Source of the DNA: a virus
Lineage: Duplodnaviria > Heunggongvirae > Uroviricota > Caudoviricetes
Direction: 5' to 3' (one strand)
IMG/VR virus record: IMGVR_UViG_2541047875_000011
Location: 1 to 11,255 of that record
Length of the DNA stretch: 11,255 bases
Shown: piece by piece, positions 2,925-10,879 of the stretch
Numbering within the stretch: the first letter of the stretch is position 1
Layout: each line of letters begins with the position of its first letter
Notes under the pieces: generated by a model
What the model saw: only the letters and a program-made list of their open reading frames with translations
Databases searched by the model: none
What the model was told of the DNA's origin: nothing
Program-made: the position numbers and the translations under genes

Positions 2925-2934
2925 TGGGGTGAAT

Positions 2935-5289
2935 ATGGCAGTAAAGATTTCAGGTGTACTGAAAGATGGTGCAGGTAAGCCGGTACAAAACTGCACTATT
3001 CAACTGAAAGCCAGACGTAACAGCACCACGGTGGTGGTGAACACGGTGGCCTCAGAAAATCCGGATGAAGCAGGTCGTTACAGCATGGATGTTGAGTACG
3101 GTCAGTACAGCGTCAGTCTGTTGGTGGAGGGGTTCCCGCCGTCACATGCCGGGACCATCACCGTCTATGAAGATTCCCGACCCGGTACGCTGAATGATTT
3201 TCTCGGTGCCATGACGGAGGATGATGCCCGTCCGGAGGCACTGCGGCGTTTTGAACTGATGGTGGAAGAAGCGGCACGTAACGCTGAAGCCGCCTCTAAG
3301 AGCGCAGCGGCGGCAAAGAAATCCGAAACTGCAGCGGCATCATCGAAGAACGCGGCGAAAACCTCAGAAACGAATGCAGCTAATAGTGCACAGGCGGCAG
3401 CGACCTCACAGACTGCATCAGCAAACTCCGCGACAGCAGCCAAAAAATCAGAAACCAACGCGAAAAACAGCGAGACAGCCGCAAAGACGAGTGAAACTAA
3501 CGCAAAGTCCAGCCAGACGGCAGCGAAGACCAGCGAAACGAATGCCAAAGCCAGTGAAACTGCGGCGAAAAGCAGTCAGGATGCAGCAGCCGAAAGCGAG
3601 AGTGCTGCAGCCGGTTCTGCGACTTCAGCAGCTGGATCAGCAACTGCTGCGGCTAACAGCCAGAAAGCCGCGAAGACGAGCGAAACTAACGCAAAGTCCA
3701 GCCAGACGGCAGCGAAGACCAGCGAAACGAATGCCAAAGCCAGCGAAACTGCGGCGAAAAACAGTCAGGATGCAGCAGCCCAAAGCGAGAGTGCCGCAGC
3801 TGGTTCTGCAACAGCGGCAGCTAATAGCCAAAAAGCTGCAAAAACCAGTGAAACTAACGCAAAGACGAGTGAAACAAAAGCAGCAGCCAGCGAGACAGAA
3901 GCAACGTCAGCCGCAACAAGAGCAGAGAATGCAGCCCGGATTGCAGAAGATGCCGCTGATCCTGCTTCTGTCCCTCCGCTTCCTGATATCTGGCTACCCT
4001 TGAATGATTCTCTGGAAGCGATAACAGGGTATGCCCCGGGCTATAAAACAATAACCATCGGCAGTGATGAAATAACAATGCCTGTTAATGGCATATGCCA
4101 ATTTAGCCGGGCTTCATCTGCAACGTATATTGATAAGTCCGGGCATATTACCGTGGCAGGGAATAACGTTCCTCGTTTTGAAAAATATGGTTTGCTGATA
4201 GAGAATCAGCGAACAAACATGTTCGTAAATAGTTTTAATCCTGATGCCTGGAATAAAAGCGGTGGTATATCTGTAACATCATCAACAGATGAATTTGAGT
4301 TTAAATATGGACGTTTCACGGTAGGAAGCGATATAGCAGGAACGACAACAGGGCGAAATATATGCACAGTTGCTGGTAACAAAGGCATAGATGTGACTGG
4401 CGATGATCAGTACAGTAAAGGTCCGTATGTTACCGCGTCGTTCAGGGTAAGAAGTGATCTCAATGTTCGCGCACGTATCCGTTTTGAACGGTATAACTCG
4501 GAAGGATACACCTTCCTTTGCGACGCCTATTTGTCATTACAGACCCATGAACTACAAATTACTGGTGGCAATGCCCAGCTATTAACAGCAAACTTTGAAA
4601 TCGATCCAGGTAGTGGATGGATATATTTTCAGGCAACACTGAAATGTCTGCCAGAATGGGGAATGGTTGGTACGCAGCTGCAAATTGCAGCCGACAGAGC
4701 AGTGGGGGCTTTTGCAACAGGTGACTGGATAGAAGTAACCACCCCGCAATTCGAGTATGGTGCCTGTGCAACTTCCTTTATCATAACGACAACAGAGCCA
4801 GCGACTCGTGCATCAGATTTATGTAAATTTCCGCTGATGAAAAATATGTATACCATGCCTTTTACGTTCATGGTGGAAGTCCATAAAAACTGGTTTATTT
4901 CTCATAATGCTGCACCGCGTGTCATTGATTCAGAAAATCACCAGTCCGGAGGCCCATTTATTATGGGGTTTGGTTCTTCTGGAACTATCAGTCAGGATGG
5001 TTATTCGTATTGCGATATAGGCGGGGCTAACCGGCGTGTATATGAGTCATGCGGAGTAAGAGATCTCGTTATGGGATTCAGGGTTAAGGCTGACGGCATG
5101 ACATGCTCATTTGCAAATAAGAATATAAGCACTGAAACCAAAACAGTATGGAAATATATTCGTGAAGCAGCCGTGATTCGTATCGGGGGGCAAACGACGA
5201 CAGGATTACGACACCTTAATGGTCATATAAAAAACCTCCGTTTCTGGAACAGAGCATTGTCAGATACGCAGATTAAGGAATACGTATAA
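2935..5289 (+). CDS. stf: Side tail fibre protein, mosaic: lambda Stf-like N-terminal anchor, Ala/Ser/Thr/Lys repeat shaft, and a divergent low-GC C-terminal module ending in a LamG/ConA-like motif
   Basis: The track ORF starts at GTG 2929, but ATG 2935 gives MAVKISGVLKDGAGKPVQNCTIQLKA, matching the lambda/Rac Stf N-terminus, with SD GGGGTG upstream. The middle has KTSETNAKSSQTAAK-type repeats as in StfR. After ~3955 the sequence is unrelated and AT-richer, ending ...LNGHIKNLRFWNRALSDTQIKEYV, which resembles the last strand of LamG-type jelly-roll domains. Stop TAA at 5287-5289. Confidence 0.85.
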   Translation: MAVKISGVLKDGAGKPVQNCTIQLKARRNSTTVVVNTVASENPDEAGRYSMDVEYGQYSVSLLVEGFPPSHAGTITVYEDSRPGTLNDFLGAMTEDDARPEALRRFELMVEEAARNAEAASKSAAAAKKSETAAASSKNAAKTSETNAANSAQAAATSQTASANSATAAKKSETNAKNSETAAKTSETNAKSSQTAAKTSETNAKASETAAKSSQDAAAESESAAAGSATSAAGSATAAANSQKAAKTSETNAKSSQTAAKTSETNAKASETAAKNSQDAAAQSESAAAGSATAAANSQKAAKTSETNAKTSETKAAASETEATSAATRAENAARIAEDAADPASVPPLPDIWLPLNDSLEAITGYAPGYKTITIGSDEITMPVNGICQFSRASSATYIDKSGHITVAGNNVPRFEKYGLLIENQRTNMFVNSFNPDAWNKSGGISVTSSTDEFEFKYGRFTVGSDIAGTTTGRNICTVAGNKGIDVTGDDQYSKGPYVTASFRVRSDLNVRARIRFERYNSEGYTFLCDAYLSLQTHELQITGGNAQLLTANFEIDPGSGWIYFQATLKCLPEWGMVGTQLQIAADRAVGAFATGDWIEVTTPQFEYGACATSFIITTTEPATRASDLCKFPLMKNMYTMPFTFMVEVHKNWFISHNAAPRVIDSENHQSGGPFIMGFGSSGTISQDGYSYCDIGGANRRVYESCGVRDLVMGFRVKADGMTCSFANKNISTETKTVWKYIREAAVIRIGGQTTTGLRHLNGHIKNLRFWNRALSDTQIKEYV
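3478..3865 (+). repeat. Tandem direct repeat (~189 bp and ~168 bp units, about 2 copies plus degenerate shorter units) inside the stf shaft region
   Basis: The string GAAACTAACGCAAAGTCCAGCCAGACGGCAGCGAAGACCAGCGAAACGAATGCCAAAGCCAG occurs near 3493 and again near 3682 with few mismatches; copy 2 lacks a 21-nt segment. Degenerate 15-18-nt units (AAxACxAGxGAAAC) extend over about 3290-3900. Confidence 0.8.
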
Positions 5290-6168: not shown

Positions 6169-7304
6169 GTGTCGACTCTGATTTCCGGCGTATTAAAAGA
6201 TGGTGCAGGTATACCGCTGGCTGCCAGATTATCCTGAAATCCCGTGTAAACACCTCAGATGTGGTGATGTCTGTTGTTGCGCATATTGTAACCGGGCAAA
6301 ACGGGGAATATGCGTTTGAGGCCCGGACGGGGAAGTACAGCGTTTATCTGAAGACTGACTGGCGTAATGAGTTTCAGGTTGGTGTTATTTCTGTTTATGA
6401 GGACTCACAACCGGGCACACTGAACGACTTCCTGATAGCAGTGAGTGATGCTGATTTGAAGCCGGACGTTCTGCGGCGGTTCGATGAGCTGGCGAGGCGT
6501 GTCCATGAAGACGCGAACAGCGCAGAACAGTTTGCCGGAGATGCCCGTCGTGCTGTGGATGAACTGGGCGGTAAGGTTCAGGACGATATTCGTGACCGTA
6601 CACCGGACCGTCTGGCTCTGCCCGGTGCTTACGGCTTCGGCGGAATATTCAGCCGCTCGGAAGCTCTGTCGTTTCAGGGGGTATCTGATTTTGGTGCGTG
6701 GCTACAGAAAGCCACGCCGGGGCGTTATCCGGTCACTGTTGCGGATTCTTCTGCATTGCTGTTGGGCACCACGAAATTTAACGGCAACATTGATGTGCTG
6801 TGGTCACCCTTTGATAACGACGGGTCGGACACAGCGCACAAATTCAAAACGCTGTTGTGTTACAACGAGCCACGTGCCGGAGAGCACGGGCTACACCTGC
6901 TCCAGTACTGGTACGAGGGCGACAACCTGCGGGTTGCGGGCAGTATGATAGTCTGCGACGCTCCGTCGCTGGCGACACTGCTGTCAGCAACAGCGGGAGC
7001 GGACCCGTCAGGGTTCTACCGTTATCCGGCGGTGGGTTCCCTGTTGCTGGCAGCGTACCACGGGGCATCTGCCGGTGCTGGCGGGGTGAGTATTGCAACA
7101 GGCGACGTTGTTCCGGGCTCCTGTCTGGGGCCGGTGAGTATTCCGTGCGCGGTGAACGAAGGCGGCACAACTCCGTCGCCGCTGCGGGCGTTTGTTGGTG
7201 GTGCCGGACAGTACAATTTCCCCGGACGTTACCAGGCGTTATCCGGTGCAAATAATGTCCGTGGAAACAATGGGTTTATCTGTCTGTTTGTGCGCGTTGA
7301 GTAG
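6169..7304 (+). pseudogene. Second side tail fibre gene with a frameshift in the N-terminal anchor region; likely decayed, or expressed from an internal start
   Basis: SD AGGAGG (6152-6157). A GTG at 6169 opens frame 1, giving VSTLISGVLKDGAGIPLA and then a stop at 6235-6237; this parallels Stf MAVKISGVLKDGAGKPV. Frame 3 continues ...CQIILKSRVNTSDVV... (parallel to CTIQLKARRNSTTVV) through to TAG at 7302-7304. It also contains a shared VYEDSQPGTLNDFL motif. The frame change is near 6219-6225, with no homopolymer or slippery heptamer. Confidence 0.6.
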
Positions 7305-8655: not shown

Positions 8656-9753
8656 TCAAGAGGTCTTATTTCTGCTCCTTTGGAGCTCTTCAAAACGATT
8701 ATGTAAAGATTTCGGATACAGTTCAGTATATACCTGCCATAGCACGTTTAATGAACGATGCCCTGTGACCTGGGCGACTTCCTCAATACTAAAACCAGCC
8801 TCAAATAAGCGACTTGCCCCTTCTCTACGCAAATCATGGTATCGCAGATCCTTAATACCTAATTTGCTTCTTACCCTCTGAAATCCCGCAGTAACAGAAG
8901 TGCTGTTATATGGAAAAATGAATTCCGATTTTTTGGGCTGTCGTTGGACGATATCCCAGGCTTCCCCAAGCAAGGCTACTTTCATGTGGTTGCCTTCCTT
9001 TTTGCGTGGATCTTTCCTGTCTCTTACGAGTATAGATTTTTGTTCCTGGTCGAGATCTTCCCATCGTAACCGGCATACTTCTCCGATCCGCATACAGGAC
9101 CACACAGAAAATTTGAGGATATCAACGAACGGAATTTTTGAGCATTTATGAGTAGATCGTTGTTGAAGGCCTTCAATGAGCATGTCCAGTTCATCAGATG
9201 CTGGTCTACGATTACGACGGTTTGATTTACCAATCAAACCAAGTTTAAGTAGATATGGGCGAGCGCTTTTCGCCGGGTTTGATGTGTAATTAATTCCGTA
9301 TACAGGTTTGGCCGCATCCAGAACACTGCCAAGATAACTAACATCGTGGCTGACTGTTGCTGGACCTGCACCAGCGTTGTTTCTTAGCCTGCAATGTTCA
9401 ATTACGTCATTTTCTGTCAGTTCAGATAGTTTGATCGCGGAGATGTCACTATCCATAAGCAGTTCCAGCACATATCTTTTAGTACGGCCTGCTTTACCTC
9501 CGGCATTTGGGTCATTTAAATATTTGTGTAGTAAGTCACGGACTGTAAGTCCGTCAACTGCATTTGATGATGGAATGCCATATAGATCTAATTCCATCAC
9601 TTTCTGTGTTCCCCATGTTTTGGCATGAGCATGTTTAGGGAATGTTTTGCTTTCCCTGTAAGTGATAACACCTTTTTCTTTGATAATCACATTACAGCGA
9701 TAGCGTGGTGTGCCATCGGATTTTAGTCGTTTCTCTATGTTATAGTACGCCAT
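8656..9753 (-). CDS. int: Prophage tyrosine integrase (site-specific recombinase, dusA-targeting type by context)
   Basis: 365-aa ORF with a C-terminal catalytic region carrying H-x-x-R (YHDLRREGASRL) and the tyrosine nucleophile (LWQVYTELY). SD GAGG 7 nt upstream on the minus strand. Divergent from dusA and only 88 bp from it. Confidence 0.9.
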   Translation of the reverse strand: MAYYNIEKRLKSDGTPRYRCNVIIKEKGVITYRESKTFPKHAHAKTWGTQKVMELDLYGIPSSNAVDGLTVRDLLHKYLNDPNAGGKAGRTKRYVLELLMDSDISAIKLSELTENDVIEHCRLRNNAGAGPATVSHDVSYLGSVLDAAKPVYGINYTSNPAKSARPYLLKLGLIGKSNRRNRRPASDELDMLIEGLQQRSTHKCSKIPFVDILKFSVWSCMRIGEVCRLRWEDLDQEQKSILVRDRKDPRKKEGNHMKVALLGEAWDIVQRQPKKSEFIFPYNSTSVTAGFQRVRSKLGIKDLRYHDLRREGASRLFEAGFSIEEVAQVTGHRSLNVLWQVYTELYPKSLHNRFEELQRSRNKTS

Positions 9754-9772
9754 TACACGACCTCGTTATTTC

Positions 9773-9808
9773 GGGTTCCCATAAAACGTGGGAACCTGTG
9801 CGGGAACC
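9773..9808. promoter_or_regulatory. Repeat cluster in the int-dusA intergenic region: candidate integrase arm-type sites or operator
   Basis: Inverted repeat GGTTCCCA (9774-9781) / TGGGAACC (9789-9796) with a 7-nt loop, plus a further direct copy of GGGAACC at 9802-9808. Confidence 0.4.
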
Positions 9809-9841
9809 TAACGCGAGAAAAATAGCCTGAAATGTTCAAAA

Positions 9842-10879
9842 ATGCACGATAATCATGAAACACAAAAAATTAATCAAACCAGCGTGATGCCTGAAAAAAC
9901 TGGTGTTTACTGGAATTCTCGGTTTAGCATTGCTCCTATGCTTGACTGGACGGACAGACATTGCCGTTATTTCTTGCGTCTGCTTTCCCGCAATACGTTG
10001 TTGTATACCGAAATGGTGACCACAGGGGCGATTATTCACGGTAAAGGTGATTACCTGGCGTACAGTGAAGAAGAACATCCGGTAGCGTTGCAACTCGGGG
10101 GTAGCGATCCGGCGGCGCTGGCACAGTGTGCGAAGCTGGCAGAAGCGCGTGGATATGATGAGATCAACCTGAATGTCGGCTGCCCGTCTGACCGGGTGCA
10201 GAACGGCATGTTTGGTGCGTGTCTGATGGGTAATGCGCAGCTGGTTGCCGACTGCGTGAAAGCGATGCGCGATGTGGTGTCGATTCCGGTGACGGTGAAA
10301 ACGCGTATTGGCATCGATGATCAGGACAGCTATGAATTTCTCTGCGATTTCATCAACACCGTTTCCGGCAAAGGTGAGTGTGAGATGTTCATCATCCACG
10401 CACGTAAAGCCTGGCTTTCTGGGTTAAGTCCGAAAGAAAACCGTGAGATCCCGCCTCTCGATTATCCGCGTGTGTATCAACTGAAGCGTGACTTTCCGCA
10501 TCTGACGATGTCGATTAACGGTGGTATCAAGTCGCTGGAAGAAGCTAAAGCGCATTTGCAACATATGGATGGCGTGATGGTCGGGCGCGAGGCGTATCAG
10601 AATCCGGGTATTCTGGCGGCGGTAGACCGAGAGATTTTTGGTTCCTCGGATACCGATGCCGATCCGGTGGCGGTAGTGCGCGCCATGTATCCGTACATTG
10701 AGCGTGAACTCAGCCAGGGTACGTATCTCGGCCATATTACCCGGCATATGCTGGGCTTGTTCCAGGGTATTCCTGGCGCGCGGCAGTGGCGGCGTTATTT
10801 AAGTGAAAATGCCCATAAAGCGGGTGCAGACATTAATGTGCTGGAACACGCGCTCAAACTGGTGGCGGATAAGCGTTAA
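9842..10879 (+). CDS. dusA: tRNA-dihydrouridine(20/20a) synthase DusA
   Basis: 345-aa ORF with the Dus family TIM-barrel signature ([33 protein letters not shown], catalytic Cys region). It matches E. coli DusA essentially along its full length as I recall it. An alternative start at ATG 9887 (MPEKTG...) would give 330 aa. Confidence 0.93.

Follow-up and report, generated by a model that had tools for sequence, protein, structure and literature searches.

Mobile elements that enter the 5' end of dusA by way of a dusA-associated integrase (DAI) are the closest described relatives of the locus analyzed here. Farrugia et al. (2015; PMC4482086) list phage mEp460 among the phages with such an integrase, note an over-representation of Escherichia, find a prtN-type gene in 60 of 94 dusA islands, and describe DAIs as lacking the C-terminal extension of Rci. 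Phage 1720a-02 integrates 100 bp into dusA and carries a PhidusA' ORF whose reading frame matches that of the host gene, its attL, attR, and attB share a 7-base core, and attP is regenerated on induction (Balasubramanian et al., 2019; PMC6328086). For the Vibrio island IMEVchUSA3, RdfN, a protein with a PrtN domain, was identified as the directionality factor, and the island provides a new promoter together with an N-terminus that is "of identical length" to that of K-12 DusA (Durand et al., 2021; PMC8409611).

The window, by which we mean the whole stretch of 11,255 nucleotides that was analyzed, is 100% identical between positions 9400 and 10300 to E. coli A24 (NZ_CP028751.1), in whose annotation a complete lambdoid prophage lies between zur and dusA. 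Core to core, this prophage is 46,653 bp (46.65 kb). The part of the window that precedes int contains tail genes of the lambda type, whose products are tip protein J, Lom, two side tail-fibre N-terminal-domain proteins, a DUF4376 protein resembling tail-fibre assembly proteins, a YkgJ-type protein, and a DinI-like protein. The A24 annotation places pspG downstream of dusA, and neither the window nor the annotation of the A24 prophage includes stx. A PrtN-domain gene (PF11112, E = 3e-23) is located near the left end of the prophage, outside the window (L001 2989-3270). Since int sits at the tail-fibre end of the A24 prophage, unlike in lambda, attP must be upstream of int; the prophage orientation of 1720a-02 has also been termed noncanonical (PMC6328086). 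The interval around the divergent int and dusA genes is almost certainly the right-hand junction (attR) of a lambdoid prophage, 46.65 kb long and of the mEp460/1720a-02 type, that entered the 5' end of dusA through a DAI. The dusA junction itself is already known, and a near-identical module has been characterized experimentally. The junction comprises the following features:

8656-9753, minus strand: integrase of 365 aa, a dusA-associated (DAI) tyrosine recombinase by sequence (PF00589, E = 1e-20).
9754-9937, unstranded: P arm of attP inside the right prophage junction (attR), all of it phage DNA, collinear with the attP of mEp460 and Lys8385Vzw.
9842-10879, plus strand: dusA ORF of 345 aa (PF01207, E = 8e-105).
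9842-9937, plus strand: phage-borne replacement 5' end of dusA, codons 1-32, beginning with ATGCAC 96 nt before the core and in frame.
9938-9945, unstranded: common core ATGCTTGA, encoding the Met-Leu-Asp part of APMLD, identical in attL, attR, and the Nissle attB.
9946-10879, plus strand: host-derived rest of dusA (B' side), 99.47% identical to Nissle 1917 when counted from the core (PF01207).

The int-attP module is all but identical to that of 1720a-02, a Stx2 phage of Citrobacter rodentium / E. coli (KF030445), with 99.7% identity over 9650-9945, an int gene by the junction, and a phage dusA' ORF; the two elements differ in cargo and in the host allele, and PMC6328086 contains no description of arm-type repeats. 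Phage mEp460 (JQ182728) has the same attP layout, flanked by int, DinI, and tail-fibre genes at one end and by a gene of the PrtN family at the opposite end. The traits of mEp460 and the DAI family are all present here: the element sits in dusA's 5' end and replaces it, the attL/attR repeats are imperfect, and there is a homologue of prtN. Phage mEp460 differs from the window at 8 of the 192 positions of 9754-9945 and diverges from the A24 prophage right after the second P' repeat described below.

Three comparisons, with the attP of free phages, with an empty chromosomal site, and by mismatch mapping, place strand exchange within 9938-9945. In the free phages mEp460 and Lys8385Vzw, attP runs from int through an 88-bp gap and a dusA-like ORF to the core variant ATGCTCGA and on into TAGGATGTACCG..., which is equivalent to the P arm of the window joined to the P' arm of the A24 left junction. 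The latter reads ...ATGCCAGCAGAATCACACACTGTTTATCCCGCTTACCGTTTCTCGATTGCCCCGATGCTTGA followed directly by TAGGATGTACCGTTTTTG..., that is, a remnant of the native dusA 5' end that terminates in ATGCTTGA (L001 1478-1485) and then the phage P' arm, so the second junction and its direct repeat, sought by the first-pass annotation at the far prophage end, are present in A24. The empty site of E. coli Nissle 1917, where zur directly adjoins dusA, reads ...CCCGATGCTTGACTGGACGG... and is equivalent to the B arm of the A24 attL joined to the B' arm of the window. From 9938 to the stop codon, the window is 99.47% identical (937/942) to this prophage-free strain, and upstream of 9938 the two gave no meaningful alignment, which locates at the core the drop in identity against prophage-free E. 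coli that the same annotation had proposed looking for. The match to mEp460 is wholly lost from 9946, and the mismatch maps put the switch from phage to host between 9945 and 9946.

The core ATGCTTGA is the only stretch that is identical among attL, attR, and the Nissle attB. With the variant ATGCTCGA, which is carried by mEp460, Lys8385Vzw, and K-12, the consensus is ATGCTYGA, 8 bp in length. Around this exact core, attL (ATTGCCCCGATGCTTGATAGGATG) and attR (ATTGCTCCTATGCTTGACTGGACG) share 19 of 24 positions over the APMLDW codons, giving an imperfect junction repeat of ~24 bp, ATTGCyCCkATGCTTGAynGGAyG, that fits the "semiconserved 21 bp" attL/attR repeats described in PMC4482086. Because the crossover falls inside ATGCTTGA, dusA codons 1-32 are phage DNA. 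The proposal that the element inserted itself into dusA's 5' end and supplied a new one is thereby borne out by the free-phage attP, the A24 stump, and the Nissle empty site, and the estimate of some 30-50 phage-derived codons resolves to 32 codons plus the shared core. The originally flagged interval, 9754-9990, is phage-derived as far as 9945, but its remainder, 9946-9990, is host dusA.

It could be argued that the dusA 5' end is an allelic host variant and that the integrase merely lies beside dusA, the element having inserted upstream of the gene and not inside it, since the alignment of the window with prophage-free strains of the K-12 type starts at 9839 and shows ~82% identity with no clean break. 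This is contradicted by the occurrence of the same dusA 5' end in free phage genomes, where it is joined to the P' arm, by the native 5' stump ending in the core that lies 46.65 kb away in the same genome, and by the strain-matched empty site of Nissle 1917, which breaks exactly at the core. The free-phage attP, the Nissle empty site, and the mismatch maps refute an allelic origin, to which we assign next to no probability. At the level of sequence, these comparisons establish the two junctions, the core, the phage origin of 9754-9945, and the assignment of the integrase to the DAI family.

The integrase is 100% identical to the Int of phage Lys8385Vzw and 98.6% identical to that of mEp460, which is a listed DAI. 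Among homologues at 64-70% identity, all 6 that were sampled (from Salmonella, Klebsiella, Dickeya, Photorhabdus, Aeromonas, and Gilliamella) adjoin a Dus gene divergently at a distance of 89-148 bp, so the family comparison that had been suggested for this protein identifies it, as judged from its homologues, as a member of the DAI family. A DusA-based scan of 80 species-level Enterobacteriaceae loci found an Int homologue upstream of dusA in 5, each of them with an element-type dusA 5' end, and int is joined to dusA in 740 of 5426 complete E. coli genomes (~14%). R222, H306, R309, H332, and Y342, the RHRH tetrad and the nucleophilic tyrosine, are invariant or nearly so across 37 homologues. 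In the predicted layout, residues 2-58 form an N-terminal domain, residues 71-171 a helical core-binding domain that is preceded by a linker, and residues 186-364 a catalytic domain, and an AF2 model based on the 37-sequence alignment has three domains with a mean pLDDT of 85.8. The N-domain is predicted to fold as strand-strand-strand-helix, with a pLDDT of 91.7 when modelled alone.

Foldseek aligns the integrase model with full-length lambda Int chains (e.g., 1z1g_A) over 359-372 columns at 15-18% identity. Searches with the Int N-terminus returned no arm-binding domain in Pfam, just a weak core-binding Int_N match (E = 0.034), nothing in NCBIfam beyond sub-threshold Xer and integron matches, and XerA only in a PDB sequence search. 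The mEp460 record annotates its Int as INT_Rci (cd00796). The Rci shufflon recombinases are relatives in sequence only, characterized by inversion between inverted sfx repeats and an extended C-terminus; DAIs lack this extension according to PMC4482086, and the reaction here is instead an attP x attB integration that leaves direct repeats 46.65 kb apart.

In the replacement 5' end of dusA, ATGCAC and the core are separated by exactly 96 nt, with the frame kept and open between them, in 10 of 10 enterobacterial and Aeromonas lineages, and the sequence between ATGCAC and the core is 39-84% identical between different lineages. The phage-borne segment ends in RFSIAP. Met16 (9887) had to be considered as an alternative start, as suggested by the equivalent native ATG, but it is absent from most element lineages. 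Given that ATGCAC at -96 is universal and in frame and that Met16 is not conserved, 9842 is the functional start of the chimeric gene. The distance from ATG to core is 54 nt in native dusA, and element-type DusA is ~14 residues longer; the rigid 96-nt spacing may also reflect the geometry of attP.

With regard to transcription, a scan of 9600-10050 on both strands for sigma-70 promoters and terminators found none, and manual inspection of the same interval found weak promoter hexamers only, so no promoter is claimed. Rfam returned a single chance miRNA match, below threshold, on 9500-10200. Since the upstream host DNA is 46.65 kb off and the upstream genes are on the other strand, dusA must be transcribed from phage DNA, and the phage would accordingly supply the dusA promoter.

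The gap that separates the divergent int and dusA genes (9754-9841) is 88 bp, as the first-pass annotation stated, and the 8-bp inverted repeat and three GGGAACC copies that it described there can be confirmed, with one of the copies inverted. The repeats and the conserved block beside them are:

9774-9780, minus strand: repeat 1, inverted copy of GGGAACC, candidate arm-type Int site, conserved in position and co-varying with repeats 2 and 3.
9790-9796, plus strand: repeat 2, GGGAACC, candidate arm-type site, conserved in position and co-varying.
9802-9808, plus strand: repeat 3, GGGAACC, candidate arm-type site, 12 bp start-to-start from repeat 2.
9813-9824, unstranded: A-rich block GCGAGAAAAATA (GAYAAAGMAAAAATA in relatives), conserved and fixed in position across every lineage aligned.

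Repeats 1 and 2 make up the inverted repeat (GGTTCCCA at 9774-9781 and TGGGAACC at 9789-9796), and GGGAACCT recurs as a direct repeat at 9790-9797 and 9802-9809. Across the window GGGAACC is observed 5 times against 1.1 expected, a count that 0 of 200 shuffles reach; over the 49.9-kb source stretch it is not enriched (8 observed against 5.7 expected, with 18 of 100 shuffles reaching 8), and 4 of these 8 copies fall within the reconstructed attP. The P' arm has a GGGAGCC and a GGGAACC, spaced by 11 bp and situated 44-61 bp past the core; mEp460 and the A24 prophage cease to be homologous immediately after the second of these copies. The functional attP would thus span ~230 bp and hold five repeats, three of them in the P arm and the other two in the P' arm.

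An alignment of this gap in 11 integrase lineages reveals three clear copies in 10 of them, the motif being unclear in Intestinirhabdus. The common layout is an inverted copy ending in CAT, ~6 nt, a direct copy, 4-5 nt, and a second direct copy, after which come the conserved block GAYAAAGMAAAAATA and, ~20 nt further on, the start AAAATGCAC. The A-rich block (9813-9824) could be a site for a bending protein or part of a promoter. In these 10 lineages the three copies keep their position and change their sequence in concert, and the class of motif tracks Int N-domain residues 7, 30-32, and 35, a covariation that is not independent per lineage because the ~10 lineages are phylogenetically related. 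The motif classes and the N-terminal sequences that pair with them are:

GGGAACC: E. coli, Kosakonia, Phytobacter.
GGGAKCC: Gilliamella.
GGTGTAC: Salmonella, Photorhabdus, Pluralibacter.
GGTGTCC: Aeromonas.
GGGGTGC: Klebsiella, Dickeya.
N-terminal ...IEKR..GTPRYRC...KEK.xI(T/I)(Y/F)RESKTF: pairs with GGGANCC.
N-terminal ...IVKRP.ADGT.RYRC..G.K.GGKH.HRET.TF: pairs with GGTGTAC.
N-terminal ...GKYIYREN.TF: pairs with GGGGTGC.

A similar two-arm layout recurs in more distant phages, with five copies of TTGCTAC/GTAGCAA in Pseudomonas phage F1Pa and with TGGTACAT/ATGTACCA in Burkholderia phage CSP3; in both, the repeats adjoin the phage's own dusA mimic, which ends in APMMD, and the integrases are 34-35% identical to that of the window. 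In Klebsiella phage Kp4886-1, whose Int shows 52% identity, two GGGGTGCTG repeats are spaced by 12 bp and the first 166 bp contain no dusA mimic; this phage was excluded as evidence because it probably uses another target site.

The first-pass annotation had left the choice between arm-type and operator sites for these repeats, a proposal to which the comparison across lineages lends support, and of the two roles we consider arm-type sites for Int quite likely. If the repeats were instead operators, bound by a phage repressor or a dedicated regulator of the int and dusA' promoters and standing outside the recombination machinery, then the palindrome formed by repeats 1 and 2, which is typical of dimeric operators, and the location of the repeats in the int leader and promoter region would both be accounted for. 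Vibrio elements, moreover, carry a LexA-box-like palindrome in this gap, so some relatives do hold regulatory sites there. A purely regulatory role nevertheless seems unlikely to us, since the same motif also occurs across the core in attP, 44-61 bp away and immediately before the end of inter-phage homology, since the motif follows the Int N-domain class over 10 lineages with otherwise unrelated cargo, and since the five-copy, two-arm layout is found again in phages whose Int is only 34-35% identical. The two roles are not exclusive, because the P-arm sites are within the int leader. PMC4482086 makes no mention of arm sites for dusA-associated integrases, and no description of them was found in the literature searched.

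The same format of dusA 5' end is found in most E. coli in the absence of any integrase. Prophage-free genomes divide into two classes: of 5426 complete E. coli genomes, 4300 (~79%) have an upstream region and a dusA 5' end of the K-12 type and lack the integrase, and 1134 (~21%; Nissle / ST131 type) have the Nissle-type 5' end. The K-12 type (MHGNSEMQKINQTSAMPEKTDVHWSGRFSVAPMLD) has the format of the elements, ATGCAC + 96 nt; between -3 of the ATG and the core, its identity to segments borne by elements is 81-87%, and a comparison with the native 5' end gave no match. The short native form of the Nissle type occurs in ~73 of 80 species-level Enterobacteriaceae loci, including those of E. albertii and of the genome that represents E. 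coli. In species other than E. coli, the long format is always accompanied by an adjacent integrase, except in two int-less Kosakonia species, one of which has already lost the start codon. Some lysogens carry a K-12-type stump cut at the core. Most E. coli, K-12 included, thus probably carry the fossil attR of a lost dusA-targeting element. A 14-nt match, GTTATGGTATAGTA, that might have indicated retention of the native promoter in K-12 is not significant, as 18 of 500 shuffles reach its score.

The K-12 N-terminus has been treated as native in work on IMEVchUSA3, which integrates at a K-12-type site (PMC8409611), and the K-12-type 5' end could indeed be the original chromosomal sequence, with the phages having captured their mimic from it. 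Relationships among the segments are as expected of an ancestor, in that the K-12 segment is 81-82% identical to the E. coli-phage type and 83-84% identical to the Kosakonia/Phytobacter type, whereas those two are 72-75% identical to each other. Nor does the region upstream in K-12 contain an int fragment or a repeat-bearing gap that we could find, and yjbL/yjbM, considered as a possible phage remnant, matched none of 50,697 phage records and showed no link to element loci by tblastx. However, an original K-12 type is difficult to reconcile with the prevalence of the short native type in Enterobacteriaceae (the ~73 of 80 loci, with E. albertii among them) and its presence in Nissle 1917, or with the two Kosakonia species that show the same int-less form. 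The ATGCAC + 96-nt format, furthermore, accompanies an integrase in 10 lineages, out to Aeromonas, and its presence in lineages with an Int only 64-70% identical implies that the format predates E. coli. On balance, we judge capture of the mimic from K-12-type chromosomes improbable and favor a relic of a lost element, a reading that we did not find stated in the literature searched.

Taken jointly, it seems reasonably likely that the start of K-12 dusA (the first 32 codons) is a fossil attR, with the native 5' end left in ~21% of E. coli and in other genera, and that DAIs are heterobivalent, with five arm sites and an N-domain that co-evolve in discrete classes and a fixed 96-nt spacing.

In the mechanism that we propose, the dusA-associated tyrosine integrase inserted the prophage into dusA's 5' end by recombining attP with the chromosomal site inside the 8-bp core ATGCTYGA (Met-Leu-Asp of APMLD). 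The int-proximal phage arm carries a mimic of the dusA start, such that after integration the host gene is read from the phage ATG at 9842 through the core and into host codons; dusA thereby stays intact, with an N-terminus ~14 residues longer, and a stump of the native 5' end remains at the far junction. The three gap copies and the two P' copies would most likely be read by the small Int N-domain in a lambda-like heterobivalent intasome. The candidate arm sites lie between int and any prophage promoter driving int and could, for this reason, let Int limit its own synthesis. By analogy with IMEVchUSA3, excision would depend on the protein of the PrtN/RdfN family whose gene lies close to the left prophage end. 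For the same or related modules, experiments by others have demonstrated that elements integrate and excise at this site, that RdfN acts as directionality factor, and that a promoter is supplied.

The Vibrio dusA-specific islands share this integration logic and a PrtN-domain factor, but they are mobilizable, AcaCD-controlled elements and not phages, their Int is more distant, and the supply of a promoter was measured there. The likeness to lambda lies in the predicted three-domain layout of Int, with its small N-domain modelled as strand-strand-strand-helix, and in the five short non-core repeats, candidate arm-type sites, distributed over both arms of a ~230-bp attP. The differences are that Int is only 15-18% identical to that of lambda, that attP is upstream of int, and that the target is a protein-coding gene that the phage repairs.

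As a junction, the locus re-identifies a published integration system and offers no new biology. Its value for annotation is that the first 32 dusA codons, and by inference the promoter, are phage DNA in ~14% of E. coli genomes, and that the prophage boundary lies inside dusA. The concerted repeats, the 96-nt spacing, and the K-12 relic appear to be undescribed in the literature searched and to be modest additions. If the repeats are arm-type sites, then the widespread DAI family would gain a defined attP architecture with swappable specificity classes, which could be of use in calling prophage boundaries and in building integration vectors. If the K-12 relic is real, then experiments on "native" K-12 DusA, including the comparison in PMC8409611, would have used an N-terminus derived from a mobile element, and dusA would clearly exemplify a core gene that a phage has permanently rewritten across most of a species.

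The 5′ end of dusA in E. coli K-12 has the element format, its ATGCAC start lying exactly 96 nt ahead of the core, as does that of 4300 of the 5426 complete E. coli genomes; the short native form is kept in 1134 E. coli genomes and in other genera. The K-12-type end shares 81-87% identity with element-borne segments and stands without an adjoining integrase, and it is probably a fossil attR. A representative copy is located as follows.

L005 4508-4620, K-12-type dusA 5′ end in strain gw25 (E. coli, K-12 type), corresponding to window 9839-9951

Two further element-type dusA 5′ ends that lack int were observed in Kosakonia, where the upstream genes are non-phage (TraF_2-like and isochorismatase); in L080 the start codon region is mutated from ATGCAC to AAGCAC.

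L048 2456-2560, int-less element-type dusA 5′ end in Kosakonia pseudosacchari
L080 2474-2560, int-less element-type dusA 5′ end in Kosakonia oryziphila

In the record of phage Lys8385Vzw (MT225100; L004, about 2790-2815), the attP core is present as a tandem double copy, ATGCTCGAATGCTCGA, which mEp460 lacks. The doubling appears to be artefactual, a prophage sequence having been circularised with both att copies retained, and it incidentally delimits the 8-bp core.

Within the int-dusA gap, an A-rich block, GAYAAAGMAAAAATA, lies between the third repeat and the element-borne dusA start (window 9813-9824). It recurs at equivalent positions in L052, L083, L084 and L091-L096 and is conserved among integrase lineages with differing repeats; a site for a bending protein and part of a promoter are both possible roles. 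Perfect LexA-box-like palindromes adjoin attP in two distant dusA-targeting elements, CTGTATGTATATACAG in the gap of Vibrio PE001 (L008, about 88-103) and CTGTATATTCATACAG on the P′ side of Pseudomonas F1Pa (L009, about 826-841), which suggests SOS control of neighbouring genes there; the E. coli gap contains no such palindrome.

Elsewhere in the window, ORF calling gives a single unbroken 786-aa tail-fibre ORF at 2929-5289 (L001 41122-43482 in E. coli A24), whereas in A24, where the sequence is identical, RefSeq annotates it as two “incomplete” pseudogene fragments. Another tail-fibre ORF follows it.

Window 6261-7304, second ORF with a tail-fibre N-terminal domain

In a Photorhabdus luminescens element beside dusA, two cargo genes directly adjoin the dusA-associated integrase (L094 2794-4095). 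One encodes an anti-CRISPR domain, an ADP-ribosyltransferase of AcrIF11 type, and the other a Cas_Csy1 domain, an unusual pairing. In the A24 prophage, a gene with a Panacea domain (SocA-like antitoxin; L001 1740-2312) directly follows the P′ arm as the first gene within the left end. Since mEp460 carries other genes in this position, the site adjoining attP is a variable cargo slot.
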